From Lentisphaeria bacterium (GTDB lineage Bacteria; Verrucomicrobiota; Lentisphaeria; Victivallales; UBA1829), in the NCBI GenBank assembly GCA_017541665.1, contig JAFXYP010000036.1:8686-72685 (forward strand): 64,000 nt of DNA. Reading direction: 5' to 3'. The notes beneath the pieces are model-generated. The model had not been told where the DNA came from, did no database searches, and saw only the letters and a program-made list of their open reading frames with translations. Within the stretch, counting starts at the first letter, position 1. The number at the start of each line of letters is the position of its first letter. The position numbers and the translations under genes were made by a program. Positions 2,545 through 37,892 of this stretch are shown piece by piece.

Positions 2545-3042
2545 ATGAAAAAGCATACAAAAAACACGCTTATCGCAATCCTGATACTCCTTTTTAATCC
2601 GATCACACTGTATCTTGCTTTTTTTACCTACGGGGAAAGCGTGAAAGCTTGTAAATATCCGGACGATTTCGAGATCTTTTACCGGATTCTGAATCCGCTG
2701 AAGGAGAAATATGAACTCGCCGAGGCCGACTGCGGATACAGCTTAAATCACATCATGTGGATCAAAATCACGGCGAAGGACCCGCAAAAGGTGTTCGACA
2801 TCGCAAAGGACATTTATGAGATCAAACAGAATTCCGAATATCTTGTGAAAGATTCGTTCGAGGTCGAGATCACGAGCGGCGATCCGGGTGTGAAGATGAA
2901 ATACAGGATCGCGGGCGAGTCCGGATACCGGGGATACCGCAAATGGCAAGACGGGATTCTGGAGGATGTGAAACGGCTCGAAGAGGAGTACCGCGTGAAA
3001 ACAAAGGAAAAAGAGCTTGGCACGACACAGATTCCCCAATAA
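2545..3042 (+). CDS. Hypothetical N-terminally membrane-anchored protein, compositionally atypical insert inside the hyp operon
   Basis: 165-aa ORF. One hydrophobic helix (LIAILILLFNPITLYLAFF) followed by a K/E-rich soluble part. Visibly AT-richer than the flanking hyp genes. No family recognised. Confidence 0.55.
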   Translation: MKKHTKNTLIAILILLFNPITLYLAFFTYGESVKACKYPDDFEIFYRILNPLKEKYELAEADCGYSLNHIMWIKITAKDPQKVFDIAKDIYEIKQNSEYLVKDSFEVEITSGDPGVKMKYRIAGESGYRGYRKWQDGILEDVKRLEEEYRVKTKEKELGTTQIPQ

Positions 3043-3117
3043 AACGATCATTCTTTTTAACAATATCTGCAACCTTTTTGCATTCAACCATATAAAAACC
3101 AGAGAAGGAGAAGGCTT

Positions 3118-3336
3118 ATGTGTGTAGGTCTTTCTGCAAGAGTAGTCAGCATTGAGGACGGGACCGCCCTCATCGACGCATCCGGCGCCAGGCGCAAGGT
3201 GTCGGCCGACCTGATCGACGACCTGGAGCCCGGCGATTACGTCATGGTCCACGCCGGCGTCGCCATCGCGAAGATCACCGACACCGACGCGGGCGAAACC
3301 CGCAAGATCATGGAGTCCCTCGATGGAATCGGCTAA
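3118..3336 (+). CDS. hypC: Hydrogenase assembly chaperone HypC/HupF
   Basis: 72 aa starting MCVGLSARV (essential Cys2 motif), with the HypC-typical ..GDYVMVHAGVAI.. AGGAGAAGG SD upstream. Confidence 0.9.
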   Translation: MCVGLSARVVSIEDGTALIDASGARRKVSADLIDDLEPGDYVMVHAGVAIAKITDTDAGETRKIMESLDGIG

Positions 3337-4366: not shown

Positions 4367-5369
4367 CAACGAATTCGTCACACTCGCCCACGGCGCGGGC
4401 GGACGGCAGACCGCCGAGCTCATCGAACGCGTTTTCAAGGCGCATTTTTCCAACCCGGACTTCACCGGCGACGATGCCGCGGTCCTGCCCGTGGACGCCG
4501 GGAAGATCGCATTCACCACCGACGGCTTCATCGTGTCGCCGTTCGAGTTCCCCGGCGGCAACATCGGCAAGCTCAGCATCTGCGGCACGGTCAACGACCT
4601 CGCGTGCATGGGCGCGAAACCTCTTTACCTCTCCTGCGCGTTCGTGATCGAGGAGGGGTTCCCGCTCGCCAAGCTCGAGGAGATCGCCGCCGCCATGAAG
4701 AAGACCGCCGACGAGGCCGGAGTCCGCATCGTGGCGGGCGACACCAAGGTCGCGGGCAAGGGCCAGGTCGACCACGTCTTCATCACCACGACCGGCGTCG
4801 GCCGGCTCACCGAGGGCGTCCGCACGTCCGGCGCGTTCGCGAAACCCGGCGACGCCGTGATCGTGACCGGCGACATCGGCCGTCACGGCTGCACGATCCT
4901 GCTCGCGCGCAACGAATTCGAGATCGACGCCGACGTCACCAGCGACTGCGCCCCGCTCTGGGGCACGGTAAAGAGCATGCTCGACGTCTCGCACGACATC
5001 CATGTGATCCGCGACGCCACGCGCGGCGGTGTCGGCACCGTCCTGTACGAGATCGCCGACCAGAGCAAGGTCGGAATCCGCATCAATGCCGCCGACGTCC
5101 CCGTCGCCCCAGAAGTGCGCGGCGTCTGCGGCATGCTCGGGCTGGAACCGCTCTACCTCGCATGCGAGGGGCGTCTCGTCGTCTTCGCTCCGAAATCCGA
5201 GGCGCAGGCCGTCCTCGACGCGCTCCGCAAGGGCCCCTACTCCGCCAACGCCGCGATCATCGGCGAAGTCATCGCCGACCACCCCGGCAAGGTCGTCATG
5301 ACCACCGAAATCGGCGCGCAGTCGCTCCTGCCCCAGCCCGGCGGCGAGCTTCTCCCGCGCATCTGTTAG
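4359..5369 (+). CDS. hypE: Hydrogenase maturation carbamoyl dehydratase HypE
   Basis: 336 aa. AIR-synthase/PurM-like fold motifs (LAHGAGG, DDAAV). The invariant C-terminal PRIC ends the protein. Confidence 0.95.
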   Translation: MDNNEFVTLAHGAGGRQTAELIERVFKAHFSNPDFTGDDAAVLPVDAGKIAFTTDGFIVSPFEFPGGNIGKLSICGTVNDLACMGAKPLYLSCAFVIEEGFPLAKLEEIAAAMKKTADEAGVRIVAGDTKVAGKGQVDHVFITTTGVGRLTEGVRTSGAFAKPGDAVIVTGDIGRHGCTILLARNEFEIDADVTSDCAPLWGTVKSMLDVSHDIHVIRDATRGGVGTVLYEIADQSKVGIRINAADVPVAPEVRGVCGMLGLEPLYLACEGRLVVFAPKSEAQAVLDALRKGPYSANAAIIGEVIADHPGKVVMTTEIGAQSLLPQPGGELLPRIC

Positions 5370-5455
5370 ACCGCAAGCGGTCCTGATACTGTGTCCGGCT
5401 TCGCTCGGACACACCGCAAGCGGTCCTGATACTGTGTCCGGCTTCGCTCGGACAC
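5370..5455. repeat. Perfect tandem duplication (2 x 43 bp), each unit carrying a 7-bp-stem palindrome (REP-like element)
   Basis: ACCGCAAGCGGTCCTGATACTGTGTCCGGCTTCGCTCGGACAC at 5370-5412 is repeated exactly at 5413-5455. Each unit contains GTGTCCG..CGGACAC and ACCGC..GCGGT inverted repeats. Confidence 0.9.
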
Positions 5456-5475
5456 GAAAAAAACAACATACCTCC

Positions 5476-5509
5476 CCGTCGGAGATGCCGAGTCTCCGGC
5501 GGTTTTTTT
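5476..5509 (+). terminator. Rho-independent terminator of the hyp operon
   Basis: Stem CCGTCGGAGA (5476-5485) pairs with TCTCCGGCGG (5493-5502), with one G-U pair. 7-nt loop, then T7 (5503-5509). Confidence 0.75.
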
Positions 5510-5652
5510 GTAAGATTTGACATCCGCCTAACTGCCACGGAAACATTCCGGAAGACAGGAAAAAATACATACCGGACACCGAAAAGACGTATGCACCCGG
5601 GCAAAAGATGTAGTTTTTAATATTTTATCGCCGTTTTTTCCTTGTTTTGCGT

Positions 5653-5680
5653 TTGACATTGCTGAGATTACATGTATTTT
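5653..5680 (+). promoter_or_regulatory. Possible sigma70-like promoter for the AraC-family gene
   Basis: TTGACA (5653-5658), 16-nt spacer, TATTTT (5675-5680), in an AT-rich gap ~90 nt upstream of the ATG at 5771. The promoter consensus of this organism is unknown. Confidence 0.3.
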
Positions 5681-5770
5681 ATGTTAGAACATGCAAACCG
5701 AACGGGACACGCCCGGCGTCAGCACGCCGGACGCCCCGGAGCAACACACAAACACTCATGAACTTTTGTT

Positions 5771-6886
5771 ATGTTTGAACTGCCAAAAAAATTCGACCGG
5801 GAATACAGCGGCATCTTCCGCACCATCGGACGCGACGTCTTTTCCACCGGTATCCTCAAGAAAGAAAACGTCTCCATCGACTGGCAGGGCGGCACGTTCC
5901 CGCTCTTCTCCGTCTCGGTCGTGCTCCGCGGGCGCGGCACCTACGTCGACGAGGACGGCACGGAATACCCCCTGATGCCGGGCAAGCTCTTCTTCCGCAT
6001 CCCGAGGCGGAAACACGCCACCTACATCGAGGAGAACAGCCACTGGCTGGAGTTCTACATGTCCTGCCATTTCATGAGCGACGACGTGGCGGATTACGGC
6101 GGCCTCCAGCCGCACGACCACATGGAGCTGGACGAGAAGCGCGAGGGCTACCTGAAGCTGAAGAACATGCCCGGGCAGGACGACAAATGGATCGGCGCCA
6201 TGTGCAAGCACATCTTCTGCGTGAACATGCAGACGCCCGTGCGCGACATCGACTTCTCGCTCGCGCTCCTCAACGAGTGTTTCGACTTCATCTCCTTCAT
6301 GAACAACGAGACGAACCAGTCGAAGATCCCGCTCGAGATGTTCGCCCTGATCACGAAGCTCCTGAAGAGCCGCCGCGAGGATTTCTCCGACCGCATCACC
6401 TCCGAGATCAAGAAGATCATCCTCGAAAACCTCACGGACAACCGTTCCCTGCCCGAACTGCTGAAGGACCTCCCGCTCAGCTATCCGTCCCTGCGCCAGC
6501 ATTTCATGCGCGTGATGGGGCACAACATCGGCGAATACCAGATCCAGTGCCGCATGGAGGAGGCCGTGAACATGCTCATGCGCGGCGTGAGCGTGAAGGA
6601 AACGGCGTTCAACCTGGGCTACAAGGACCAGTTCTTCTTCTCCAAGCAGTTCCACCAGAAGCTCGGCTACCCGCCCAGCGCCATCAACCCGCTGAACCCG
6701 CGCGGCGTCAAACGGTACCAGCCGAAGACCCCTGCGGAACCGGAACCCGTTCCGGCGAAGAGCGTTCCGGCGAAACAGGCCGCCGCCCGCACCGCAACGA
6801 AAGCGCAGGTCCCGCCGCTGCCGCCGCCGAAGGTCAGGAAGAACGCTTCTTCGACGAAGAAGTCCCTCGCGAAATCCGGCAAATAA
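5771..6886 (+). CDS. AraC/XylS-family transcriptional regulator with a Pro/Ala/Lys-rich C-terminal tail
   Basis: 371 aa. N-terminal cupin-like sensor part. C-terminal double HTH (LPELLKDLPLSYPSLRQHFMRVMG..ETAFNLGYKDQFFFSKQFHQKLGYPPS). This is followed by a ~70-aa tail, PKTPAEPEPVPAKSVPAKQAAARTATKAQVPPLPPPKVRK. Confidence 0.85.
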   Translation: MFELPKKFDREYSGIFRTIGRDVFSTGILKKENVSIDWQGGTFPLFSVSVVLRGRGTYVDEDGTEYPLMPGKLFFRIPRRKHATYIEENSHWLEFYMSCHFMSDDVADYGGLQPHDHMELDEKREGYLKLKNMPGQDDKWIGAMCKHIFCVNMQTPVRDIDFSLALLNECFDFISFMNNETNQSKIPLEMFALITKLLKSRREDFSDRITSEIKKIILENLTDNRSLPELLKDLPLSYPSLRQHFMRVMGHNIGEYQIQCRMEEAVNMLMRGVSVKETAFNLGYKDQFFFSKQFHQKLGYPPSAINPLNPRGVKRYQPKTPAEPEPVPAKSVPAKQAAARTATKAQVPPLPPPKVRKNASSTKKSLAKSGK

Positions 6887-6963
6887 GACGCCATCCGTGC
6901 GGCTCTCCACGAACCGCATTTTTTCCGCAGATCAGACATTCAATACTCCACAGGACTGCCCCC

Positions 6964-9900
6964 ATGTCAGAAGAAATGAGCCCCGTTGCGCCGGATGCAG
7001 CTCCACAGCTGACCGCCGAACTCGAATTCCTCCCGTTCTTCAATCTCGCGTTCCAGCAGAACAACATCCCCGCGGTGCAGGAACTGAAGCTGTCCAACCG
7101 GTCGGACCGGCCGCTGGCAGGACTGGTATGCACGTTCAGCTCGTCCCCGGAGATGATCCAGCCAAAGACGATCCACGCGGAGGAGATTGCGCCGGGCGAG
7201 ACGCTGGCGATGCATGGCCTCGGGATCGAACTCAATTTCGATTTTCTGACGGCGCTTTCCGAGGCGGTCAGGGGAAAACTGAAATTGGACGTCTTCCGGA
7301 ACGGGCAGGCTTTGTGCAGCCGGGAATACGGCATCACGGCATTCGCCGCCGACCAGTGGACCGGGCGGGATGTCATGCCGGAACTCCTCGCGGCATTCGT
7401 CACGCCGAACCTGGACGTGATCTCCGAGCTTCAGGCGCGAACGTCCGAAGAACTCCGCAAGGCGACCGGCGACGCCTCCATTGACGGCTACCATTCCGGC
7501 AAACGCGAACGCGTGTATGAAATCTGCGCAGCGATTTACCGCGCGGTCTATTCGTGGGGCATCCATTACTCGCTGCCGCCGTCTTCGATCGGGACGCCCG
7601 GGCAACGCATCCGCTTCGCCGACAACATCTTCCAGTATAAGCTCGGGACCTGCCTCGACACGACCGTGCTGTTCGCATCCGTCATGGAACAATGCGGCCT
7701 GCATCCGGTCATCATGCTCCAGACGGGGCACGCCTATATCGGCTGCCATTTGGTCGACCGGTATTTCCCGGACATCCCGATGGACGACCTGCAGGCAATC
7801 CGCAAACTCGTCGACCTGGACGAATTCCTGGTACTGGAAACGACTGCCGTGTGTTCGGGCGACAATGCCACGTTTTCCAAGGCGGAAGCGATTGCGCGCA
7901 CAAGCCATCTGAACATCGACGAGGATTTCCACTGCGCCATCGACATCTGCCGCGCCCGCCGCAGCGGGATACGCCCCCTGCCCCTGAAACGCAGCGTCAA
8001 CGGACTGGAGCTCGCACCCGTCGAAAACGATGTGGATAAACTCGGCCCGGAGGAAATGCGGACACTTCAGGAGCAAGTGGACCTCTCCTCGCTGGAAAAC
8101 GGCGGGACGCAGTCCGGGCGGGTGCGCCACTGGACGCAGAAACTGCTGGACCTTTCGCTGCGGAACCGTCTGCTGAACGTGCGCGACACGAAACAGATCA
8201 TCCCGATCGCATGCACCGACATAACAGTGCTGGAGGACAAACTCGCCGCGGACGAGAACATCGCGCTCAACACGCTTTCCAATCTCCTGAACGAAAAAGA
8301 CATCCATGACCTGGCGATGCTCCGCAACAGCGAAGTGAAGACAGAGATCAAGGCCCTGCTCGACTCCGAGCTGAACCAGCACCGCCTGTGGAGCATCCTG
8401 CCTCCGCCGGAACTCAACAAACGCATCCTCGCGGTCTACCGTCAGAGCAAATCGGACCTGGAGGAAGGCGGCGTCAACACGCTTTTCCTCGCGATCGGAT
8501 TCCTGGAGTGGAAGCAGACCGAACGGGACGCGAAATCCTATCTGGCGCCCATTCTGCTGGTCCCGATCCAGATCCGGCGCAAGTCCGTCGCAGAGGGGTT
8601 CCGCATTTCCCGCCTGGACGAGGACACCATGATCAACGAAACGCTGCTGGAGCTCCTCCGCAGCCAGTTCCGCCTGACGGTCCCCGGCCTCGACCCGCTC
8701 CCGGCCGACGAGTCCGGCGTGGACGTGGCGCGCGTGATGCAGATCTTCCGCCAGACGCTCAAGGACATGAAGGGTTGGGAGGTCCGCGAGGAAGCCCGCA
8801 TCGGGCTCTTCTCGTTCAGCAAGTTCATCATGTGGAACGATTTGACGGCACGGCAGGACGATCTCCGCAAAAATGCGCTCGTCAGCCACCTGATCGAAGG
8901 CGGCGGACTCTTCGACGACGGGATCGAAGTTTTCCCGCCGGAGGAGATCGCGCAGCATCTGGACCTGAAAAACCTCTGCTGCCCCTTGAGCGCGGACTCT
9001 TCTCAACTGGCCGCCGTCATCTACTCCGGCAGGGGAAAGAGCTTCGTGCTGCACGGCCCGCCCGGCACCGGCAAATCCCAGACCATCACGAACATCATCG
9101 CATACAACCTGGCGCTCGGACGCCGCGTGCTCTTCGTCTCCGAGAAGAAAGCCGCGCTCGACGTAGTCCATAACCGCCTCACGAAGATCGGCCTGAAGCC
9201 GTTCTGCCTGGAGCTTCACTCCAACAAGGCAGGCAAGACCGAGGTGCTGAAACAGTTCGCCGAGGCGCTTCAAATCCCGGAAACCGCCTCGCCCGCCGAG
9301 TGGGACGACGTCGTCGCGTCCATGGAACAGACCCGCGAAGAGCTCAACCGCTATGTCCGCGAGCTTCACAACGTATATCCGAACGGGCTTTCCGCCTACG
9401 ACTGTTTCTCGCGGACGCTCCCGCTGGCGGAGCAGCCCGATCCCGAACTCGCACCGGAGATCGACTTTCTGACGCAGACGCGCGAGGCCCGGGAGACCCT
9501 GGAACGCCTCGTCGCCGACCTCGCGATCGCGTTCCGGGGCACGTCGACCGATGCGCTGGACGCCACGCGCATCCTGGATCCCGTCCCGTGGTCGCCCGTA
9601 CAGGAAAACAATCTTCTGAAATCCGCCCGCGTGCTCGCATCCGCCGCGGGAACGTTGAAGGACGCATTCGCCGCGGTCGCACCGCTTCTTTCCATGCCCC
9701 CGCACTCCGCGAACATCCCCGCCATCCGCAAGACCGCCGAACTCGCCGCACTGTTCCCGGCTGTCCGGGACATCCCGGCGAACCTTGTCTGCGCGCAGTT
9801 CCCGTCGCATGCGGAGTTCCTGAAGGCGTATCTCGCGGACGACCGCCGCCGCGCCGAACTGGAAAGCAGGCTGAAGCCGTACCGACTGGACGTCTTCCCC

Positions 9901-12801
9901 CAGTACGATTTCCCCGGCATCGCCGCCCGGATCGCCGAACACGAAAAGGCGTTCTTCCTCGTGCGGTTCTTCAAGAACAATGCCCTGCTGAAGGAACTGG
10001 CGGGCCTGAAAAAGGGCGGCGGATCGAAGCTGACCATGTCCGAACTGAAGACGCTGCTCCCGGACGCGGAAGAATACAACGTTCTGCGGAGCAAACTCGA
10101 ATCCGGCCGCGGCCGGGCGGAAGAGCTGCTCGGCGCATACCGGAACGCCGGTTCGCCGGACCGGAATGCCGTGGAAGCCATGCTGTCGGACGCGGAAAAA
10201 GTCATGGCAATCGCATCGGAATTCGCCGGGGAAGAGTTGTTTGAAACGCTCCGCAAGTTGCTCCCGGACGCGAAACGGAATTTTGCCGAGTACCTTCCTT
10301 CGATTCAGAAACTCCGGGACGCCGAGGAAGGATTCACGGCGGCGCTGGACGGCTTCGCCGCACATTCCTCCGCCGCGGCCGAGATGGACAATCTTGACAC
10401 GCTTCGCGATTCCGTGCAGGCGGTCATCGTTCACGCCTCCGAACTGCGCCCCGCGCTCCGGTATCTCGTCCTCGCGAAGGAGGCGCGGGAACGCGGCCTC
10501 GCGAAGCTCGCCGGCGCACTCGAAAAAGGCTCGCTGGAACCGTCCGGATTCGCGGAATTCTGCGGCGACGTCTTCGCCTCGGCCATGCTCAACCGGATCC
10601 TGGCCGCATCTCCGGTCCTCAGCCAGTTCGACGGCGCCACGCACGACGACCGCATCCGCAAGTTCTCCGCGCTCGACGATGAATATACGGCGCTGGCGCG
10701 CAGGATCGTCTTCGCAAAACTCGCCGCATCCCTCCCGCGACGGCGTTCCGGCCCCTGCCCCGAAGGCACCGAGCTCGGATTGCTGAAACGCGAATGCGAA
10801 AAACGCGCCCGGCAGAAACCCGTCCGCCAGCTCCTGGAACAGATCCCGACGCTGGCGCCGATCCTCAAGCCGTGCTTCCTGATGAGCCCGCTCTCCGTGG
10901 CACAGTACCTGCCGCCCGACACCGCGCCGTTCGACCTGATCGTGTTCGACGAAGCCTCCCAGATACCGGTCTGGGACGCCATCGGCGTGATCGCACGCGG
11001 CAAGCAGCTGATCGTGGTCGGCGACCCGAAACAGATGCCCCCGACCAACTTCTTCCAGAAACAGGACGCGGACGGCGCGGACGACGAAACGGAAGACGTC
11101 GCCGACCTGGAAAGCATCCTGGACGAGTGCATCGCCGCCGGAGTCCATTCGGCATATCTGAACTGGCACTACCGCAGCCGCCACGAATCCCTGATCGCAT
11201 TCAGCAACCATTACTACTACGGGGACAAACTCTTTACGTTCCCCGCCGCGACCACGTCCGACCGGCTCGGCGTCCGCTTCGAGTTCGTCCCGGACGGCGT
11301 CTACGACCGCAAATCCACCCGTACCAACCGCAAGGAGGCGGAGGCCGTTGTGAAGTATGTATTCGACCGGCTGGCGCGCTCGGACAGGAAACGCTCCATC
11401 GGCATCGTGACATTCAGCCAGGCGCAGAAGGACCTGATCGAAGACCTGCTGGAGGACGAACGCAGGAGGCATCCCGGGCTGGAACCGTATTTCAGCGACA
11501 GGAACCCGGAGCCGCCGTTCGTGAAGAACCTCGAGAACGTGCAGGGCGACGAACGCGACGTGATCCTCTTCTCCATCGGCTACGCTCCGGACGCCGAGGG
11601 CAGGTTCGCCATGAACTTCGGACCTCTGAACCGCCAGGGCGGCGAACGCCGCCTGAACGTGGCGATCACGCGCGCCAAGGAACAGGTCGTGGTCTTCTCC
11701 AGCATCCATGCGAACCAGATCGACCTCTCGCGCACCGGAGCCGTCGGCGCGGCGCACCTCAAGTTCTTCCTCGACTACGCGGAAAAAGGCATCCGCATCC
11801 AGCATGGCAACACCGCCGGCGCGGCCGGGACCGGGCTCGCGGACGTCATCGCGGGAGTTCTGGCGGACAGCGGCTATCCGGTGGAACGCAGCTTCGGCAG
11901 TTCCGAGTACAAGATCGACCTCGCCGTCCGCAATCCCGACAAACCGGAGGATTTCCTGCTCGCCATCGAATGCGACGGCTCCTCCTATGCCGCCCAGCGC
12001 ACCACGCGCGACCGCGAACACCTCCGCCCGTCCGTCCTGCAATCGCTCGGCTGGCACACCTGCCGCGCATGGAGCGTGGACTGGGCGTTCGCACGCAAGC
12101 ATGCGGAGCAATGCCTCGTCCGGTATCTCGACGAGCTGAAAAATGCCCCGGCGGCAACCGAACCGGAACCGACCCCCGAGCCACCCGCGGAAAACGCCGA
12201 AGCGGTCCGTCCGGATGCCAATGACCCCGCTGCACAGGAAGAAGCGCCCCCCGCGCCATCACCGTCCGTTTCGCAGTTCCGGAAAGAATACCGGGTCTGG
12301 CGGCCCTCCGGCAAACTGAACCCGGATGCGTTCTACGAGCCGGAATCCCGCACGGTGATCCGGCAGCAAATCGAAGAGGTCATTCGTACCGAAGGCCCGG
12401 TTTACGAAAGCCTGCTGAAAAAACGCATCGTTAAAGCATGGGGATTCACCCGCGCCGGCGGCAATATCGCCGCAGTTCTGCAGGAATGCCTCCCTCGCGA
12501 CCTGACGACGACCGCAAACGCCGACGAACCGGTCTGCTGGCCGAAGGATGTCTCCCCCGCCGACTTCCGCGACTACCGAGTCGGCACGGACCGTGGATCC
12601 AGACGCGCCATCGACGAGATCCCGCCCGAAGAGCTCGCGAACGCCATGTATGAAATCCTCGTCGACTTCGCATCTTGCGAACGCGACGTCCTCTTCCGCG
12701 AAACGATCCGGCTTTTCGGGCTCAACACGCTTACGGCAAAAGCCCGGCAGTATCTCGAATACGCCGTCGCCGTGCTGCGGAATACCGGCCGACTCGATTA
12801 A
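6964..12801 (+). CDS. Giant multidomain protein: transglutaminase-like fold + DUF4011-like region + Upf1-like SF1 helicase + Vsr/DUF559-like (MTES_1575-type) endonuclease + DUF3320-like tail
   Basis: Start set at the first ATG after the araC-like stop (6964, in frame with the 6187 ORF). 1,945 aa. GTC230LDTT..TGH256AYIGCHLVD (Cys-His-Asp). W390TQKLLDLSLRNRLLNVR. Walker A GPPGTGKS (nt 9055-9078). DEAS (nt 10948). VVGDPKQMPP, YRSRHESL, VQGDERDVILFS, NVAITRAK. Nuclease-like YKIDLAV..LLAIECDGSSYA..LQSLGW (nt ~11850-12125). Confidence 0.9.
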   Translation: MSEEMSPVAPDAAPQLTAELEFLPFFNLAFQQNNIPAVQELKLSNRSDRPLAGLVCTFSSSPEMIQPKTIHAEEIAPGETLAMHGLGIELNFDFLTALSEAVRGKLKLDVFRNGQALCSREYGITAFAADQWTGRDVMPELLAAFVTPNLDVISELQARTSEELRKATGDASIDGYHSGKRERVYEICAAIYRAVYSWGIHYSLPPSSIGTPGQRIRFADNIFQYKLGTCLDTTVLFASVMEQCGLHPVIMLQTGHAYIGCHLVDRYFPDIPMDDLQAIRKLVDLDEFLVLETTAVCSGDNATFSKAEAIARTSHLNIDEDFHCAIDICRARRSGIRPLPLKRSVNGLELAPVENDVDKLGPEEMRTLQEQVDLSSLENGGTQSGRVRHWTQKLLDLSLRNRLLNVRDTKQIIPIACTDITVLEDKLAADENIALNTLSNLLNEKDIHDLAMLRNSEVKTEIKALLDSELNQHRLWSILPPPELNKRILAVYRQSKSDLEEGGVNTLFLAIGFLEWKQTERDAKSYLAPILLVPIQIRRKSVAEGFRISRLDEDTMINETLLELLRSQFRLTVPGLDPLPADESGVDVARVMQIFRQTLKDMKGWEVREEARIGLFSFSKFIMWNDLTARQDDLRKNALVSHLIEGGGLFDDGIEVFPPEEIAQHLDLKNLCCPLSADSSQLAAVIYSGRGKSFVLHGPPGTGKSQTITNIIAYNLALGRRVLFVSEKKAALDVVHNRLTKIGLKPFCLELHSNKAGKTEVLKQFAEALQIPETASPAEWDDVVASMEQTREELNRYVRELHNVYPNGLSAYDCFSRTLPLAEQPDPELAPEIDFLTQTREARETLERLVADLAIAFRGTSTDALDATRILDPVPWSPVQENNLLKSARVLASAAGTLKDAFAAVAPLLSMPPHSANIPAIRKTAELAALFPAVRDIPANLVCAQFPSHAEFLKAYLADDRRRAELESRLKPYRLDVFPQYDFPGIAARIAEHEKAFFLVRFFKNNALLKELAGLKKGGGSKLTMSELKTLLPDAEEYNVLRSKLESGRGRAEELLGAYRNAGSPDRNAVEAMLSDAEKVMAIASEFAGEELFETLRKLLPDAKRNFAEYLPSIQKLRDAEEGFTAALDGFAAHSSAAAEMDNLDTLRDSVQAVIVHASELRPALRYLVLAKEARERGLAKLAGALEKGSLEPSGFAEFCGDVFASAMLNRILAASPVLSQFDGATHDDRIRKFSALDDEYTALARRIVFAKLAASLPRRRSGPCPEGTELGLLKRECEKRARQKPVRQLLEQIPTLAPILKPCFLMSPLSVAQYLPPDTAPFDLIVFDEASQIPVWDAIGVIARGKQLIVVGDPKQMPPTNFFQKQDADGADDETEDVADLESILDECIAAGVHSAYLNWHYRSRHESLIAFSNHYYYGDKLFTFPAATTSDRLGVRFEFVPDGVYDRKSTRTNRKEAEAVVKYVFDRLARSDRKRSIGIVTFSQAQKDLIEDLLEDERRRHPGLEPYFSDRNPEPPFVKNLENVQGDERDVILFSIGYAPDAEGRFAMNFGPLNRQGGERRLNVAITRAKEQVVVFSSIHANQIDLSRTGAVGAAHLKFFLDYAEKGIRIQHGNTAGAAGTGLADVIAGVLADSGYPVERSFGSSEYKIDLAVRNPDKPEDFLLAIECDGSSYAAQRTTRDREHLRPSVLQSLGWHTCRAWSVDWAFARKHAEQCLVRYLDELKNAPAATEPEPTPEPPAENAEAVRPDANDPAAQEEAPPAPSPSVSQFRKEYRVWRPSGKLNPDAFYEPESRTVIRQQIEEVIRTEGPVYESLLKKRIVKAWGFTRAGGNIAAVLQECLPRDLTTTANADEPVCWPKDVSPADFRDYRVGTDRGSRRAIDEIPPEELANAMYEILVDFASCERDVLFRETIRLFGLNTLTAKARQYLEYAVAVLRNTGRLD

Positions 12802-12828
12802 TCGAACGCATTACGCGCCCGGCGGGCG

Positions 12829-13326
12829 TCACACCCGGCCGTTCAAAAGCTGCCGGATCAGGTCCAGCCCCTCCGCGGCGGCCGTCCCCATCGTGTCCGG
12901 GCTGACCAGATACCACACGCCCAGCACGTTCAGGACGACGTACAGCCAGAAGATGGCCATGTAGGAGACCTTCTTCCATTTGTGATGGAACCGTCCCTGC
13001 GCGTACAATGCCCCCGGCCAGCCGCAGAGCAGTTCCCAGAAATGCAGATAGAACTCCGGGATCCGCCAGTTCTGCTGTTCCGCAAGACGCTTATCCTCCC
13101 GGTAGAACAGGATCGTAAGCAGGCTGTTGCACACATACGCCAGCGCGACCCCGGGGACCGGCCGGCCCAGCAGAAGTGAAAGCGTCAGTCCGGGGACGAC
13201 CGCCAGCGGCCAGAAACATGCCAGCCTGGCGGGAAACGGCAGTTTCCTTCTTGCGGATTCCAAACCTCCGTTCCGGCGGGACCGGGGCGACATTCCCGAG
13301 GGCATCCGCCCCTTCCTGTCCGTCAT
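12829..13326 (-). CDS. DUF1294-family membrane protein
   Basis: Motif region YREDKRLAEQQNWRIPEFYLHFWELLCGWPGALYAQGRFHHKWKK is typical of DUF1294. Start placed at the ATG forming an ATGA overlap with the upstream gene stop (13323-13326). Confidence 0.7.
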   Translation of the reverse strand: MTDRKGRMPSGMSPRSRRNGGLESARRKLPFPARLACFWPLAVVPGLTLSLLLGRPVPGVALAYVCNSLLTILFYREDKRLAEQQNWRIPEFYLHFWELLCGWPGALYAQGRFHHKWKKVSYMAIFWLYVVLNVLGVWYLVSPDTMGTAAAEGLDLIRQLLNGRV

Positions 13327-13724
13327 GGCCGCTTCCGCTGTTCCTTTTTCCACTTCTTATAGGCGTCGATCTCCGACTGGAACGAGGATACGACGAGGGC
13401 AAACACCGCGGCATCGTCCACGAACCCGGCGATTGGGATGAAGTCCGGGATGATGTCAAGCGGGGAAACAAGATAGGTCACGGCAAACCCGATCGAGGCG
13501 ATGAGCTTCCACGGCACGGCCTTGTACTCCCCGGCCCGGTAATCCTGAAGCAGGGCCCACAAGACCTTGAAGGTCTCGAATTGATCTCCAAGGGATTTGG
13601 ATTTCTCCTCCGCGATCGCGCTGTCCTCCTGGACTTTCTCCAGGTCGTCCTCGGTAAAATTCCGGGTCCCGTACTCGAATGTCGAATTGATCCTCTCCTG
13701 ATCGACTTTGTCCTTTTCGTTCAT
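13323..13724 (-). CDS. DUF1232 (YkvA-like) membrane protein
   Basis: 133 aa with the DUF1232 signature YLVSPLDIIPDFIPIAGFVDDAAV. Confidence 0.7.
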   Translation of the reverse strand: MNEKDKVDQERINSTFEYGTRNFTEDDLEKVQEDSAIAEEKSKSLGDQFETFKVLWALLQDYRAGEYKAVPWKLIASIGFAVTYLVSPLDIIPDFIPIAGFVDDAAVFALVVSSFQSEIDAYKKWKKEQRKRP

Positions 13725-13897
13725 GATCCGCTCCTCCGGTTGTCTCGTTCTCCTGACGGCGCATTGAAAAAAAAGATGGACTTTTATTAGTATATCCCGT
13801 TTCCGCCGGATGTCAAATCAAAAAGGAACGGAATGTCCATTCTTGTGCGTTTTTTTAGGGGGAGCGAAGTCCGGGCGCCTTCGTCATGAGCAGGCGG

Positions 13898-14428
13898 TCA
13901 ATCGTCCGCGGGTTGCGGATACTCCAGTTCGCCGAGGTCGAATCCGAGTTCCGCCGCGCGTTTCAGGATGGCGTCGAGCCGGTCTTTCTCCATCGACGGC
14001 CGGCGGGCAAGCACCCAGAAGTAGTCGCGGCTTCCCGCGGTAACGACGGCATAACTGTAGTCCGGGGCGAGTTCGATGATGCGATAGTCGGAATAAAACG
14101 GCCAGAAAAACGACACGCGCAGTTCGCCGGCCAGGGGCTTCGCGTCCGGGTGCTTGAGTTTCGCCTTGCCCGTGACGGACGTTCTCTCGCCGTCGCGCAC
14201 GCCGCTGTTCTCGACCCGGATCGTGCCGTCGTCGTTCAATGTGTACTGCGCCTTCACCTCGTTCAGGTCTCGTTCGAAATACTGCGGCAGGCGCACGATC
14301 TCGTACCACGTGCCCATGTAGCGGTCCGGGTCGAAATCCCGCACCGCCGCGATGTCCGATGTCGTCGCGCATCCGGTCAATGCCGCCGCGATCGACGAAA
14401 TGATCCCGCTCATCAGAAAATGCTTCAT
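13898..14428 (-). CDS. blc: Outer-membrane lipocalin Blc
   Basis: 176 aa. Lipoprotein signal with lipobox LTGC. Lipocalin motifs FDPDRYMGTWYEI and YSYAVV..RDYFWVLAR. Confidence 0.85.
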   Translation of the reverse strand: MKHFLMSGIISSIAAALTGCATTSDIAAVRDFDPDRYMGTWYEIVRLPQYFERDLNEVKAQYTLNDDGTIRVENSGVRDGERTSVTGKAKLKHPDAKPLAGELRVSFFWPFYSDYRIIELAPDYSYAVVTAGSRDYFWVLARRPSMEKDRLDAILKRAAELGFDLGELEYPQPADD

Positions 14429-22606: not shown

Positions 22607-25600
22607 TTATGCGATGGAGGAAAGCTCCTTCAGCACATCGACCTGCTTGTCGTCGACAAGGCCGGACGCGGCAAGGCTTCCCCCGCAGACGGACTGGACG
22701 TCGGCCGGCCAGGCGAGCACATCATCGACGGGCGGCCCGGCCGTACAAGGCTCCATTTGGACCTGTTCGGGAACCGGATAGCCGCAGGACCATTCATAGA
22801 GGATGTCGTCCGTGCAGTCCGGCGCGGCCGGGAGCGGATCGACGATCTCGCCCCAGTTTTCATCGTTTGCGGTCTCAGCCGGGTAGAACGTGCTGCCGGC
22901 ATTGTTGAGGCTCAGGGTGTAGTACGCACCGCCGCCCTGCGCGGCATTGTCCGACTGCATGGAGAAGTAGTATTCGCCCGCTTCGAGATGAAGCGCCTTC
23001 GTATCCGCCAGGTATTTCCCCGTCTGCTTGTCCAGCACGAGCGCGGTCGTCTGGAGCGTCTTCAGCTTGTACGTGCCGTTTCTCGCCTCGATCAGGCTGT
23101 AGACCGTGAACGTCGCGGCGCCGTCGGCCTCGACCGCGAAGCTCAGGTCGGCATCGTCGAAGGTCGAGAATCCGGCATAATCGAACTCGTCGCCGAATCC
23201 GACCCAGCCGTCGGCCAGTTCATAGCTGTATTCATCCACGAAGCCGATGCTGCCGACCATGCCGTACGGCCCTTGCTGCGTGATATCGGTCCAGTCGTCG
23301 CTGTTGTCCGCCTCCGTGTAGAACGTGCTGGCGGTGGCATTGAGGGAAAGATTGTAGGCGGCGGACCCGCCCTGCGCGGCGTTCGTCGACTGGATGGAGA
23401 AATAATACTCACCGGCATTCAGCAGGAGTTCCTTTGTGGTCGCCTCGTAGTCCTGCATCTGCTTGTTGAACGCGAGCGTGGTCGACTGAAGCGCTTTCAG
23501 CCTGTATGCGCCGTTTCCGGACTGGACCAGCTGATAGACCGTGAACGTCGCCGCATCGGTGGCGTCGATGGAGAAACTCAGTTTCGCATCGCTGAAAAGC
23601 GTAAATCCCATATAATCCACAGCGTCGCCGAAGCCGACCCAGCCCGAGGCAAGGTCGCCGGAATACCCGTCCACCACGCCGATGCCGCCCACGTCGCCAT
23701 AGGCGCCTTCCGTCGCGAGGCTGGTCCAGTCGTCGCTGTTGTCCGCCTCCGTGTAGAACGCGCTGCCGGGGGCATTGAGGGAAAGATTGTAGGCGGCGGA
23801 CCCGCCCTGCGCGGCATTCGCCGACTGCACGGAGATATAGTATTCGCCCGCTTCGAGCAGAAGCGCCTTCGTGACCGCTTCGTAGTCCCCGGACGACTTG
23901 TTCAGGGACAGGGAAGTCGTCTGGAGCGCCTTCAGGGAATATGCTCCGTGCCGGTCCTGAACCAACTGATAGATTGTGAACGCCGCCGCGTCGGAGGCAT
24001 CAAGGGAGAAGCTCAGTTTCGCACCGTTGAAAAGGGTAAATCCCATGTAGTCGACCGCATCGCCGAAGCCGACCCAGCCGGTCGCCAGGTCCGTGCTGTA
24101 CTCGTCGATCACGCCGACGTATCCGACATTCCCGTACGCGCCCGCAGTCTTCAGGTCGGTCCAGTCGTCATAGTTCTCGCCCTGCGTGTAGAACGTGCAG
24201 TCGGAGGGATTCATGGACACCGTGTACTGCGCATCCCCTCCCTGCGCCGCGTTGGACGACTGCACGCAGATATAATAGTCGCCGGCTTCGAGCAGGAGCG
24301 CCTTCGTGACCGCTTCATAATCGCCGGACTCCCTGTTCAGCGTCAGCGCGGTCGTCTGGACGGGGGTCAGCGTGTACATGCCGCTCTTCGTCTGCGTGAG
24401 GCGACAGATCGTGAACGACACGGCGTCGCCGGCGTTGATGGAGAACCGCAGGGATGCGGCGCTGTTGAGCGTAAAGCCTGTATAGTCGAACTCGTCGCCG
24501 AAGCCGACCCAGTCGCGGATGAGTTCACCGTCGAATTCGTCGATCACGCCGACGTATCCGACATTCCCGTATGCACCCGCGGTCTTCAGGTCGGTCCAGT
24601 CGTCGTAATTCCATCCTTCCGTGAAGAATTTGCTGTCTTCGCCGTTGAGGCTGATGCTGTAGTTCACGTACTTCGAGGAGTCCGCGGACTGCATGGAGAT
24701 GTAGTATTCGCCCGCCTCGAGCAGAAGCGCCTTCGTGGCGGCGTCGTATTCCTGCGTCTGCCGGTTGACCGTGAGAGTCGTCGACTGGAGTGCAGTCAGG
24801 GAGTATTTGCCGTTTTTGTCCTGGACAAGCCGGTAGACCGTGAATTTCGCCGCAGCGTCGGCATTGAGCGAGAAGCTCACCTGACCGGCGTTATACAGGC
24901 TGATCCGGGCATAGTCGGCTTCCCTGCCGCCGACCCAGCCGGACGTCAGTTCCGTGGTATATTCGTCCACCCAGCCGAGGTCGCCGACCGACCCGTCCGG
25001 GCCGAGCGCCTCAAGGTCGGACCAGCTGTTGCCGCCGTCCGCCGTGAAGAACGTGCTGTCTTCGCCGTTGAGACACACCCAGTAGTTGGCGCCTCCGCCC
25101 TGCTGGGCGTCGGTCGACTGCACGCAGATATAGTAGTCGCCCTTCGCGAGGAACAGGGATTTCGTCGTCGCCTCGTAATCCTCGTATTCCCTGTCATAGG
25201 AAAGCGAGGTCGTCTGGAGCGCCTTCAGGGAATAAGTGCCGCCGGCGGACTGGACGAGCTGGTAGACCGTGAACTTCGCCGCGCCGTCGGCGGTGATCGA
25301 AAAGCTCAGTTTCGCCGCGGTGTCGAGAGAGAATCCGGCATAGTCGACCGCATCGCCGAAGCCGACCCAGTCGCCGATCAGGTCGAAACTGTATTCGTTC
25401 AGGAAACCGAGGTAGCCGACCGATCCGCAGGCGCCTTCCGTCGCGAGGTCGGTCCAGTCGTCCTGGTTGTTTCCGAATGAAAAGAATTCGCTGCCGCCCG
25501 CCTCCGGGTCCTGGTTGAGGAGGATGCCGTAGTAAGCGCTGCCGCCCTGCGCGGCGTTGGTCGACTGCACCGAGAAATAATACTCCCCGGCCTCCAGCAG

Positions 25601-28120: not shown

Positions 28121-28231
28121 AAAGATTCCTTGCCCGATGAATTGACAGGTCTTCGGAGCGGGGCGAGCACCTCGGACCGGGCAGTCGGAAAACAGATCGG
28201 CAGGATGTAAAACCTGCGGCATCTTGCATAT

Positions 28232-34114: not shown

Positions 34115-34797
34115 GGGCGTCGAAGATCCGCCGCTTTCTGTTTTTGTTGGCGGCTCCGCTCCTTGTTTTCCTGTCTTCCGCCTCCCTCTCCGCGGAGGAG
34201 GCTTCCGTGCAGACGGACGGGAAAACGCAGGGGACCGGGGACGCCGGCATGGCGGAGATCCTGTCGAACATCGCGAACTTCAGGACGCTCCGCACGAAAT
34301 TCGTTCAGACGAAACATCTCAAGTCGTTTAAGAAGCCCATGGTCCTGAACGGCGAACTCTGTCTCGACCGCCCCGGCAAACGCTTCGCATGGCACGTCGA
34401 AAAACCGCTCCGATACTCCTGCGTCATCGCGGACGGCAAGCTCACGCAGTGGGACGAAGACTCCGGCAGGACCGTCTCCGTACCGTTCTCCAAGTACCCC
34501 ATGCTGGAAATGCTTTCGGACGCCATGACGGCGTTCGCGTCCGGCGATCTGAAGGCGCTGGAAAAGGATTTCGAGGCGGCTCCGGGCAAGGACGGCGCGA
34601 TCGTGCTGAAGCCGCGTTCCGAACGCTTCGCCGCCTCGCTTATCACCGAAGTCGAACTCTCGCTCGACGACACGAAAACGAAGATCGTGAAGGTCCGCGC
34701 ATCCGAGAAAAACGGCGACGTGACCGAGCTCGTCTACTCGGATTCCGTTTTCGACTCCGACATCCCGGATACACTCTGGCAGGCGAAACAGAAATGA
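34093..34797 (+). CDS. LolA-like lipoprotein-carrier-fold protein (ApeL-like)
   Basis: 234 aa. Signal peptide IRRFLFLLAAPLLVFLSSASLSA. FRTLRTKFVQTKHLKSFKKPMVLNGEL is typical of LolA-like proteins in lipid-export clusters. Start at ATG 34093 overlaps the preceding gene by 22 nt. Confidence 0.7.
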   Translation: MYHQRTVRASKIRRFLFLLAAPLLVFLSSASLSAEEASVQTDGKTQGTGDAGMAEILSNIANFRTLRTKFVQTKHLKSFKKPMVLNGELCLDRPGKRFAWHVEKPLRYSCVIADGKLTQWDEDSGRTVSVPFSKYPMLEMLSDAMTAFASGDLKALEKDFEAAPGKDGAIVLKPRSERFAASLITEVELSLDDTKTKIVKVRASEKNGDVTELVYSDSVFDSDIPDTLWQAKQK

Positions 34798-37700: not shown

Positions 37701-37892
37701 TGGGGACCGAAATTGCCCGTAATGAACAAATATTACTTTAAAAACGAAAGTATCGACTGGCAATCCTGGTATTTTCGGTATATCGTAAAAGATACGGTTA
37801 TTTTTCCCGAAATCATCGTATACGACAATAATAAACACGGATACCGCCTTATCCTGTCGGTATCGGATTACTTCGAGGACAGCGAATCATGA
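34794..37892 (+). CDS. MMPL/RND-type predicted exporter fused to a C-terminal DUF3261-like lipoprotein domain (ApeM+ApeN-like fusion)
   Basis: 1,032 aa. ATGA overlap with the LolA-like gene. Two blocks of ~6 TM helices with large loops (MMPL pattern). After aa ~790 there is an internal signal-like segment LKTLLLAVTPVFLLFASSAC (Cys813, nt 37230-37232) followed by a ~220-aa soluble domain. Confidence 0.8.
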   Translation: MKHLLRRVILFGLRRPVLAALLSLLALALAALPLFFASFSADITRMLPSGSRSEQECAVLLNSGLFNQSAVLFTADTEDRLDAASAEIDRIADEIASVPGVTRVDNRFLPNDLAATLASFQEWIPQFQPFSELDPAGIVSAVKRKILLGGFASLVLADPTGFAASKLATLEQFRSASSFRLKDGETAIVSPDGLHRLLLLETDVSAADTTGGRRLMGDLESILANHPISGIRADLLLAHAHSIENERVIKSDVKLACILSILFFLPAVLLLFRRDLRALAIPVFPAVVSLAAVGLLAIPGEPVLLFVTATGGLVIGLAVDYGVHVYMTMQTPCPVRRLIRIAPSLLTGAATSAAVFLLLALTPIPGVRQFGVFIGISLLASLFLTLLLFPSVLIRTKAPLPKPRPLKTFSPKLACGICFGLMALFGVLAALRLTVRTDLRQFDAAQEKLSETADAVERLFLDGPAQGVLAVPGKDANTVLMSASLICDTFLKLDPGLEGRIFSTSFLIPPPFDVTKSIREINLSSWRENFDYDKFAESLRAAAEKEGFEPDAFDPYLASLKRGIESPDLVSYPEVFAPVLNRILRPAADGNGWYAAIFLPQSALARHRPGVGNRQPVPYDILGAVAISRTDIPAQIVSDMKSAATLPVILAVLSVFAIAFLFFRSVRDSLCAMIPVAAALLTVCAVYALCGKPLNLAAEISLVLLSGLAIDYGVFVIGSERSASNPYVFRAITASAVTTAAGGLTIAFAGHPLLHEAGFALIPGVLAAWGVAVLLLPSIRRGFAAQTKPVSPGLKTLLLAVTPVFLLFASSACRSLPYDYEPVPPLTETDWPLYRDAVQPPAAPMQPFAFQGKVTIEYKFFSQATLCAVSYDESGELRVAAFSPSGGKLFELAGTADALADFWFVPFDILDGHEKEAAGFILEDFFNIFSHLEPWRGAKAGATETIDDGKKIIRRETSGDDGGELVSEFWGPKLPVMNKYYFKNESIDWQSWYFRYIVKDTVIFPEIIVYDNNKHGYRLILSVSDYFEDSES

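Follow-up and report, generated by a model that had tools for sequence, protein, structure and literature searches.

Background

Upf1-like helicases and nucleases are combined in several bacterial defence systems. Nhi and Hna carry an SF1-type helicase and a nuclease on one polypeptide and act alone. To our knowledge, neither contains DUF4011, DUF3320 or a transglutaminase-fold head, and their nuclease types and domain orders differ from those of the ProA family considered here. Hhe, which combines a DUF4011 helicase with a Vsr nuclease, is an anti-phage protein active against lambda, T3, T7 and PhiV-1, and its nuclease mutation E1731A abolishes defence (bioRxiv 10.1101/2022.06.16.496414). For the system itself, the same preprint cites Gao et al. 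2020. An initial annotation of the DNA studied here had held that the DUF4011/DUF3320 helicase family has no experimentally assigned role; this statement has to be withdrawn, as Hhe is a published anti-phage gene, and ProA bears an anti-phage name in NCBIfam.

We analyzed a single large protein encoded in a 64,000-nucleotide stretch of a Lentisphaeria bacterium genome (contig JAFXYP010000036.1, positions 8,686 to 72,685), hereafter called the window. Its best explanation, which we consider probable, is a ProA-family single-polypeptide anti-phage helicase-nuclease related to Hhe.

Gene structure and family assignment

The gene and its immediate neighbours are arranged as follows.

5771..6886, plus strand: AraC-type (HTH_18) regulator gene, 78 nt upstream of the ProA gene and on the same strand (Pfam HTH_18)
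6964..12801, plus strand: ProA-family open reading frame, 1,945 aa (translation; NCBIfam NF058533, 1984 bits; PADLOC PDC-S37, 1240 bits)
12829..13353, minus strand: convergent DUF1294 gene, marking the module boundary (GC3 frame analysis; Pfam DUF1294)

Translation of the plus strand from 6964 to 12801 gives an uninterrupted protein of 1,945 aa followed by a stop codon, and a string search located every motif of the initial annotation at its listed position in this one 5,838-nt reading frame. The frame stays open in the 5' direction as far as 6187. Because part of this extension overlaps the AraC-type gene, and because M1 is conserved, with homologues starting at the same methionine as the 6964 frame, we regard 6964 as a sensible start. 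A promoter-like site (5653-5680) and a terminator-like site (5476-5502) both lie upstream of the AraC-type gene. No convincing plus-strand terminator, in the form of a GC-rich stem followed by a T run, was found in the interval between the AraC-type gene and the ProA gene, and the two genes are possibly co-transcribed. The described position of the gene, behind an AraC regulator and bounded by a convergent gene, is correct. Its description as a single-gene module also holds, since neither the window nor the surroundings of the plasmid-borne homologues yielded a partner gene (such as a ‘ProB’) or partner family.

Comparison with curated profiles places the protein well above the cutoff of the NCBIfam equivalog NF058533, ‘anti-phage protein ProA’ (1984.3 bits against 1500), and the alignment runs end to end, from profile position 1 to 1902 of 1903 and from aa 27 to 1921 of the protein. 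The PADLOC candidate PDC-S37 was matched with 1239.7 bits (aa 386-1944 on profile positions 9-1538 of 1550); this model has no curated PADLOC cutoff, and PDC entries denote candidates, not validated systems. For the Hhe equivalog NF042953 the score was 799.6 bits against a cutoff of 2000, and thus below it, with the best stretch covering aa 1023-1752 only; the PADLOC model for Hhe (PDLC02194) gave 552 bits. Neither Nhi nor Hna was matched by PADLOC at E <= 0.01. Judged by these profiles, the protein belongs over its full length to ProA, a single-gene anti-phage family that had already been named, and Hhe is a sister family of ProA, not the same family. The proposal of a self-contained helicase-nuclease defence protein agrees with the membership in NF058533 and PDC-S37, and it is by homology only that a defence role is suggested for the Lentisphaeria copy. 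Full-text literature searches returned neither a publication defining the name ProA nor text on PDC-S37 (apparent matches to ProA proved to be ‘proactively’ and ‘proaerolysin’). Therefore the anti-phage label rests on NCBI curation and on Hhe. A search for an E. coli copy gave no match.

Helicase-nuclease body

Downstream of the N-terminal head, the protein contains the following modules, all on the plus strand.

8140..8658, plus strand: DUF4011 domain, aa 393-565 (Pfam PF13195, E 5.9e-41)
8995..9300, plus strand: N-terminal part of helicase domain RecA1, aa 678-779, with Walker A motif GPPGTGKS at aa 698-705 (Pfam AAA_11, AAA_19, AAA_30)
9301..10833, plus strand: insertion of about 510 aa, aa 780-1290, between motifs I/Ia and II (no Pfam family above threshold)
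10861..11700, plus strand: helicase motifs II-VI, aa 1300-1579 (Pfam AAA_12, aa 1384-1579; PDB matches; motif conservation)
11848..12123, plus strand: Vsr-like PD-(D/E)xK nuclease MTES_1575, aa 1629-1720 (Pfam PF18741, 81.1 bits against a cutoff of 38.2)
12136..12288, plus strand: Pro/Ala/Glu-rich linker, aa 1725-1775 (composition; lowest conservation in the protein)
12325..12798, plus strand: DUF3320 tail, aa 1788-1945 (Pfam PF11784, aa 1788-1836, E 1.5e-14)

The modules that had been proposed for this part of the protein were all recovered. DUF4011, whose hallmark WTQKLLDLSLRNRLLNVR occupies aa 390-407, scores above the Pfam gathering threshold, as do the nuclease, the DUF3320-like tail and the Upf1-like SF1 helicase (AAA_11 and AAA_12). 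By string search, the helicase motifs after the insertion are DEAS (1329-1332), VVGDPKQMPP (1351-1360), YRSRHESL (1403-1410), VQGDERDVILFS (1526-1537) and NVAITRAK (1565-1572). In a phmmer search against the PDB, the RecA1 part matched IGHMBP2 (2e-9), and Upf1 (2e-7) and Sen1 were matched over aa 1323-1579. Upf1-like motors act on both DNA and RNA. The Walker A lysine, Lys704, is kept in all 105 full-length homologues. Among the long stretches of the protein the insertion is the least conserved, with conservation of 0.27-0.52 for aa 801-1250 compared to 0.8-0.9 in the motifs.

The nuclease motifs were located as YKIDLAV (1649-1655), LLAIECDGSSYA (1665-1676) and RPSVLQSLGW (1688-1697). Their acidic residues are conserved among the same 105 homologues: Asp1652 in 99, Glu1669 in 97 and Asp1671 in all. 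The linker is evident from composition, with 14 Pro, 12 Ala and 8 Glu among the 66 residues of aa 1725-1790. The DUF3320 tail is absent from 8 of the 120 best homologues and from the Acinetobacter plasmid copies.

N-terminal head

Two modules were distinguished in the head.

7009..7341, plus strand: N-terminal beta-sandwich, aa 16-126 (AlphaFold2 strands; Foldseek)
7351..7998, plus strand: transglutaminase-fold core, aa 130-345 (AlphaFold2; Foldseek; residue conservation)

No Pfam family exceeded its threshold in the N-terminal 390 aa, the best being the ‘transglutaminase-like’ DUF553 (E 0.19, 11.6 bits against a cutoff of 20.5), and a head profile compared with PDB chain sequences gave no relevant match. 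Structure prediction was more informative. The AlphaFold2 model of aa 1-392 (pLDDT 86.9) places strands between residues 16 and 126, and Foldseek with the whole head aligned some 120 columns with Ig-like sandwiches and with TG2, TG3 and factor XIII; the beta-rich N-terminus noted earlier is supported by both. Since the model of the core alone does not retrieve TG2, TG3 and factor XIII, and since they appear in the company of Ig-like sandwiches, we assigned these matches to the N-terminal beta-sandwich and did not take them as proof of a transglutaminase core. The core model (aa 128-350) has a pLDDT of 92.2, and among the 50 Foldseek matches listed most have the transglutaminase fold, at weak scores (E of at least 0.013, TMq 0.25-0.39). 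The top matches were TgpA, the cysteine protease 3isr, PNGase, TglA, menin, RavJ, PeiP/PeiW and Rad4, and 4xz7 was also among those with this fold. The suggested transglutaminase-like fold is in this way supported as a prediction by AlphaFold2 and Foldseek, at weak E-values and with no curated profile above its threshold.

Residue conservation agrees in part with the putative catalytic triad read from the sequence as Cys-His-Asp. GTC lies at aa 228-230 and TGHAYIGCHLVD at aa 254-265; among the 105 full-length homologues, Cys230 is kept in 104 and His256 in 105. Position 265 is a variable column (D56/E39/N6/G2 in the 105 sequences), which rules out Asp265 as a triad residue. His262, Asp286 and Glu292 are invariant in the alignment, Glu292 within the strand FLVLETT, and Glu292 or Asp286 is the candidate for the third residue. 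In the AlphaFold2 core model, Cys230 stands at the N-terminus of a helix, His256 begins the next strand but one and Glu292 lies in the strand that follows. The predicted core resembles transglutaminase-like cysteine peptidases in fold class and in the placement of Cys, at the N-terminal end of a helix, and of His, on the sheet that comes next. Cys230 and His256 are 26 residues apart, close to the 27 residues of PNGase. The predicted core differs from these peptidases in an extra helix (aa 276-284) ahead of the strand with the likely third residue, and in that this residue is Glu rather than Asp.

The head had been thought to make the Lentisphaeria copy unusual. This is not the case, because it lies within the ProA profile, 108 of the 120 best homologues have it, and 6,395 representative clusters (50% identity) carry it. 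It also occurs in ProA homologues on conjugative plasmids of Klebsiella, Acinetobacter, Rhizobium and Pseudomonas. At the same locus in two sibling genomes, a clean in-frame deletion of residues about 25-361, joined at a CCCG microhomology, has removed the whole head. Because such natural head-less variants keep an intact body, the head is not the core of the machine. We infer that it is an accessory module, either regulatory or sensing, or a second enzyme (peptidase, isopeptidase or deamidase).

Whether such a module needs catalysis can be argued in two directions. A catalytically dead head, which would only bind nucleic acid or protein, as Rad4/XPC or menin do, and would provide neither a second effector nor proteolytic activation, is possible if somewhat doubtful. 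In its favour, the structural matches include Rad4/XPC and menin, in which the fold has no catalytic use, curated profiles for proteases and transglutaminases all stayed below threshold, Asp265 is variable, and head-less variants persist in nature. However, the near-complete conservation of Cys230 and His256 would be unusual for a dead site, and both residues lie on the expected structural elements with PNGase-like spacing and an invariant Glu292 in the following strand. A more specific idea, that the head is an active Cys-His enzyme or a trigger sensor gating the helicase-nuclease body and that head polymorphism records selection on this gate, is speculative and on balance unlikely. If the head does act as a gate, phage proteins that target or trigger it would be an example of the selecting agent, and a head-plus/head-minus allele pair would already be available for dissecting ProA activation.

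Genomic context in sibling genomes

The gene order hypF-hypD-hypE-AraC-ProA is kept in six sibling genomes, with the AraC-ProA pairing in all six, and synteny is lost beyond the genus. The surroundings are of housekeeping type (hyp genes, a lipocalin, an EamA transporter). A PADLOC scan of 10 window neighbours gave no defence match, and no tRNA, Rfam feature or mobile-element marker was found. The GC3 of the ProA gene (0.81) is within one standard deviation of the window mean (0.838 +/- 0.042). Recent horizontal acquisition was rejected on the basis of this native GC3 and the absence of tRNA and Rfam features. The ProA gene is a native, solitary and stably inherited chromosomal copy.

This context could be expected of a host housekeeping enzyme for nucleic-acid repair or RNA/DNA surveillance, for example one resolving stalled replication or transcription intermediates, whose likeness to ProA and Hhe would reflect shared machinery and not role. 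The syntenic position in the six siblings, the native codon composition and the lack of defence genes among the window neighbours all fit such an enzyme, and Upf1, Sen1 and IGHMBP2 are themselves cellular surveillance helicases. Moreover, all P. aeruginosa isolates have a DUF4011 gene as a core flanking gene (PMC10250203), and some relatives therefore behave like core genes. Nevertheless, we consider a housekeeping role distinctly unlikely. The protein exceeds the curated equivalog cutoff of an anti-phage family, the synteny does not extend beyond the genus, and ProA diverges faster than its flanking genes, with 79-83% identity among siblings compared to 95-97% for hypD and hypE.

Homologues on plasmids, in viruses and in distant genomes

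Homologues were found in 525 plasmid records, including 219 conjugative and 148 mobilizable plasmids; 22 of the 525 have at least 80% query coverage, head included. A copy on an Enterobacter IncF plasmid scores 2224 bits on the ProA profile and adjoins the replication region. In three plasmid contexts, the copies lie near IS110 and repA, near a large integrase with WYL and ThiF genes, and near ParDE and a bacteriocin gene. This frequent occurrence on conjugative plasmids and near IS elements, integrases and toxin-antitoxin modules also speaks against a housekeeping enzyme. Of 17 more distant loci, only 2-3 had Type I restriction-modification genes nearby, and the neighbours were mostly metabolic or regulatory, which is in line with the housekeeping role. 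The initial annotation had named a conserved housekeeping context lacking defence-gene enrichment as evidence against defence; such a context is partly seen in this lineage and is contradicted by the plasmid-borne relatives. Homologue architectures vary, some being head-less, some tail-less and others extended by CpXC/Sel1 or Sel1/AAA. Such domain gain and loss is atypical of core repair enzymes and suggests the modularity typical of immune proteins.

Carriage by phages is rare, the head being present in one of 2.9 million viral contigs (IMG/VR). Taken with the 525 plasmid records and the IncF copy beside a replication region, this raises the question of the target. The main target could be plasmids or other conjugative elements rather than phages, with the family engaged in inter-element competition and chromosomal copies limiting incoming DNA. 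We give this version only a slim chance, as the curated ProA name and the Hhe data concern phages; it is in any case one form of the defence reading and does not compete with it.

Proposed mechanism

Under the preferred reading of an anti-phage helicase-nuclease, we infer the activity and substrate of the protein, the sequence of steps and the contribution of the head as follows. Transcription would possibly start at the promoter of the AraC-type gene upstream. Assisted by DUF4011 and the fast-evolving insertion, the Upf1-like SF1 motor would load on nucleic acid of foreign origin, with phage DNA or replication intermediates the most probable substrates, and would translocate using ATP. The C-terminal Vsr-like nuclease (Asp1652, Glu1669, Asp1671) would then cut the tracked nucleic acid, stopping phage replication, and the head would act as an accessory module.

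Comparison with known systems

The range of a named single-gene anti-phage family now includes a Lentisphaerota gut or rumen lineage. The head of this family is modelled as a beta-sandwich followed by a domain of transglutaminase fold, in which a Cys-His pair is invariant. The new detail is the head-less sibling alleles, which, at an otherwise identical locus, provide ready-made controls for studies of ProA/Hhe-type regulation; no new class of system is opened.

Mokosh MkoA and MkoC resemble the Lentisphaeria protein in the Upf1-like helicase core, with weak PADLOC matches of about 89 bits. Only the helicase motifs match, and Mokosh has a PLD nuclease and other accessory domains; the protein is not a Mokosh member. 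Hhe is likewise encoded by a single gene and combines DUF4011, an SF1 helicase and a Vsr-like nuclease, and its profile match spans the C-terminal half of the helicase and the nuclease. The nuclease glutamate needed for defence in Hhe probably has its counterpart in Glu1669. Hhe differs in showing no evidence of a ProA-type head. The PDC-S37 model also differs in this respect, as it begins at DUF4011. With ProA (NF058533), the protein shares the complete module order of beta-sandwich, transglutaminase-fold core, DUF4011, split SF1 helicase, MTES_1575 nuclease and DUF3320, and 108 of the 120 best homologues have these modules too. In contrast to the proteobacterial plasmid copies, to which it is 35-40% identical, the Lentisphaeria copy is chromosomal and lies behind an AraC regulator in housekeeping surroundings.

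Domain architecture and family assignment of the ProA gene product

The ProA gene occupies an uninterrupted frame on the forward strand at 6964-12801 of the window and encodes 1,945 residues (the query, to which all residue numbers refer). The open frame reaches upstream to 6187, into the AraC-type gene (5771-6886); the methionine at 6964 is common to the aligned homologues, and third-position GC selects the frame 6964-12801 together with the adjacent genes. The ORF and domain layout described in the initial annotation were confirmed by translation, by motif positions (a string search found all quoted motifs at the residue numbers given) and by five Pfam domains above the gathering score.

Pfam domains of the ProA gene product
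aa 393-565, DUF4011
aa 678-779, AAA_11
aa 1384-1579, AAA_12
aa 1629-1720, MTES_1575
aa 1788-1836, DUF3320

Among PDB sequences, the query matched IGHMBP2, Upf1 and Sen1. Its helicase is split between Walker A and DEAS by an insertion of about 510 residues, which has no Pfam match above threshold and shows the lowest conservation among the long stretches of the query in the homologue alignment. The nuclease residues Asp1652, Glu1669 and Asp1671 are retained in 99, 97 and all 105 of 105 full-length sequences, respectively.

The NCBIfam equivalog NF058533, 'anti-phage protein ProA', scores 1984 bits against the query (cutoff 1500), with query residues 27-1921 aligned to positions 1-1902 of the 1903-position profile. 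Judged by this profile, the query is a further member of a family already curated and named as anti-phage, in agreement with the functional class guessed from sequence alone. Since the alignment starts at residue 27 and profile position 1, the N-terminal region (the head) belongs to the family definition. The part of the query that begins at residue 386 also matches the PADLOC defence candidate PDC-S37 (1240 bits). A full-text literature search found no publication behind the ProA name, and the anti-phage label for ProA itself rests on NCBI curation.

Fold and conserved residues of the head

The AlphaFold2 prediction for residues 1-392, which drew on 23 homologues (pLDDT 86.9), places an alpha/beta domain after a beta-sandwich (aa 16-126). 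With the whole head, Foldseek returned animal transglutaminases; these matches span only about 120 columns and are interspersed with Ig-like sandwiches, and were therefore assigned to the beta-sandwich and not taken as evidence for the core. A separate model of the core (residues 128-350, pLDDT 92.2) matched TgpA, the 3isr cysteine protease, PNGase, the transglutaminase 4xz7, TglA and menin, and further RavJ, pseudomurein endoisopeptidases and Rad4/XPC. These are transglutaminase-fold proteins matched with weak E-values (0.013 or more), and the only Pfam match to the head is DUF553 (E 0.19). It is the agreement among the matches, and no single statistic, that gives good support to the predicted transglutaminase fold class.

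In the core model, Cys230 starts a helix and His256 starts the second strand after it; they are conserved in 104 and 105 of the 105 full-length sequences, respectively. The head alignment of 23 sequences shows no variation at His262, Asp286 and Glu292, and each of these is retained in at least 95% of the 105. The initial annotation had placed Asp265 in a Cys-His-Asp triad, but this column varies (56 Asp, 39 Glu, 6 Asn and 2 Gly among the 105). We propose Glu292 instead as the third residue of the Cys-His site, because the strand FLVLETT (aa 288-294) resembles the 'lDpT' strand of transglutaminase cores. That the head is catalytically dead and serves for binding only appears doubtful to us; this question is separate from that of the protein's role.

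Distribution of the head and head-less natural alleles

The head profile recovered 6,395 representative clusters at E <= 0.001, of which 1,575 reach E <= 1e-30; the best matches are mostly 1.9-2.3 thousand residues long, with the head N-terminal. A domain census of the 120 best full-protein matches found head, DUF4011, nuclease and tail (DUF3320) in 108; the tail was absent in eight, the head in two, and both nuclease and tail in two that are possibly cut at contig ends. The head, earlier considered unusual, is thus a family trait and not a peculiarity of this copy. Longer variants carry CpXC and Sel1 repeats, or Sel1 repeats and AAA ATPases, ahead of the head. ProA-like head-profile matches of 2.6-3.1 thousand residues (P0127, P0145, P0258, P0189) have a CpXC zinc-ribbon and Sel1 repeats ahead of the head, and in one protein the head is preceded by Sel1 repeats and two AAA ATPase domains; all are additional N-terminal modules on the same body. 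Close matches are dominated by gut and rumen PVC bacteria, whereas a relative from the marine cyanobacterium Prochlorococcus sp. AG-402-M23 (L038, 10001-14821) aligns to query residues 392-1707 only, at 37% identity.

Two sibling genomes, RUG555 (L003) and RUG11954 (L004), have the same locus at 82-83% identity with the head deleted.

hypFDE-AraC-ProA loci with head deletion (corresponding to window 7036-8046)
L003:9905-14758
L004:9842-14743

Their protein of about 1,604 residues, represented by cluster P0017 and found on six contigs, retains the first 24 residues and resumes at query residue 362. The deletion is clean and in frame (residues ~25-361) and removes both the sandwich and the transglutaminase-fold core; its junction has a shared CCCG microhomology, preceded by ACTCG on both sides. 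P0017 still exceeds the ProA cutoff (1653 bits, positions 348-1902). P0018, a second head-less relative, has a different N-terminus. The head can therefore be lost as a module while the body is retained. The interest of this family member rests mainly on these natural alleles and on the role of the Cys-His head.

Genomic context in Lentisphaeria

In the window, the gene order is hypF, hypD, hypE, AraC-type gene and ProA, followed on the opposite strand by DUF1294, DUF1232, lipocalin, TPM, EamA and other genes. PADLOC gave no match on 10 window neighbours, NCBIfam assigned no anti-phage family to seven, and no tRNA or Rfam features were found in the window. The GC3 of the ProA gene is 0.81, compared with 0.838 +/- 0.042 for the window. 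The hypF-to-ProA order is kept in six sibling rumen Lentisphaeria/Victivallales genomes, across which hypD and hypE are 95-97% identical and ProA only 79-83%. Loci with ProA identity of 63% or less have none of these neighbours in common. In 17 distant loci, the 112 flanking ORFs are for the most part metabolic or regulatory, and Type I R-M parts occur near ProA in two or three loci. In P. aeruginosa, the defence hotspot cDHS1 is flanked in every isolate by a core gene, a large one with DUF4011 (PMC10250203). We regard a housekeeping surveillance enzyme as an improbable reading of the ProA gene product.

Other features of the window were also noted. The hypF-hypD gap (2545-3320) is the expected site of the small hypC, and its only long ORF (2545-3042, 165 aa) matched neither Pfam nor NCBIfam; annotation of the hyp cluster is incomplete here. 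A second giant ORF on the reverse strand (22607-28222, 1,871 aa, coding-like GC3 0.80) matched nothing in Pfam (above threshold), PADLOC or NCBIfam, and a 1,167-aa ORF on the forward strand (34389-37892) had no PADLOC match.

Plasmid-borne relatives

A homologue is present in 525 plasmid records, including 244 from Klebsiella, and an Enterobacter IncF copy scores 2224 bits with the ProA profile. The three plasmid contexts inspected contain, respectively, IS110 and repA; large integrase, WYL and ThiF genes; and ParDE with a bacteriocin gene.

Plasmid-borne homologues
7950-13841, ProA homologue on the Enterobacter IncFIA/IncFII plasmid NZ_CP056553.1 (L039), flanked by an IS110 transposase on one side and the IncFII repA region on the other
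4612-9768, tail-less copy of 1,718 aa without DUF3320 on the A. baumannii plasmid pOXA58_005078 (L040)

Next to the A. baumannii copy lie genes for a site-specific integrase of 1,064 aa, a WYL-domain protein and a ThiF-family protein, an arrangement that resembles a small cluster of defence genes carried by a resistance plasmid. Only one IMG/VR contig has the head (L042, IMGVR_UViG_2524614847_000002, a 2,152-aa ProA-like ORF at 7611-14069), so carriage by phages or prophages exists but is rare. Overall, in Proteobacteria the family behaves like mobile cargo, whereas in the query lineage it behaves like a chromosomal gene that is settled and evolves fast. An action of ProA against plasmids seems to us quite unlikely.

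Proposed mechanism and comparison with Hhe

The ProA gene product probably has a defence role. Based on domain identity, conservation and the published Hhe system, the SF1 motor would load on foreign nucleic acid and translocate with ATP, the Vsr-like nuclease would make the cut (Asp1652, Glu1669, Asp1671), and recognition or control may come from the head and from the insertion, which is poorly conserved.

Hhe contains a Vsr endonuclease domain, is active against lambda, T3, T7 and PhiV-1, and loses defence upon the E1731A substitution, according to a study of nuclease-containing systems (bioRxiv 10.1101/2022.06.16.496414). Because this activity is published, the earlier statement that no role has been assigned to DUF4011/DUF3320 helicases is outdated. 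The PADLOC Hhe profile matches the query partially, and the NCBIfam Hhe profile scores 800 bits, below its cutoff of 2000; the query is a sister of Hhe and not Hhe itself.
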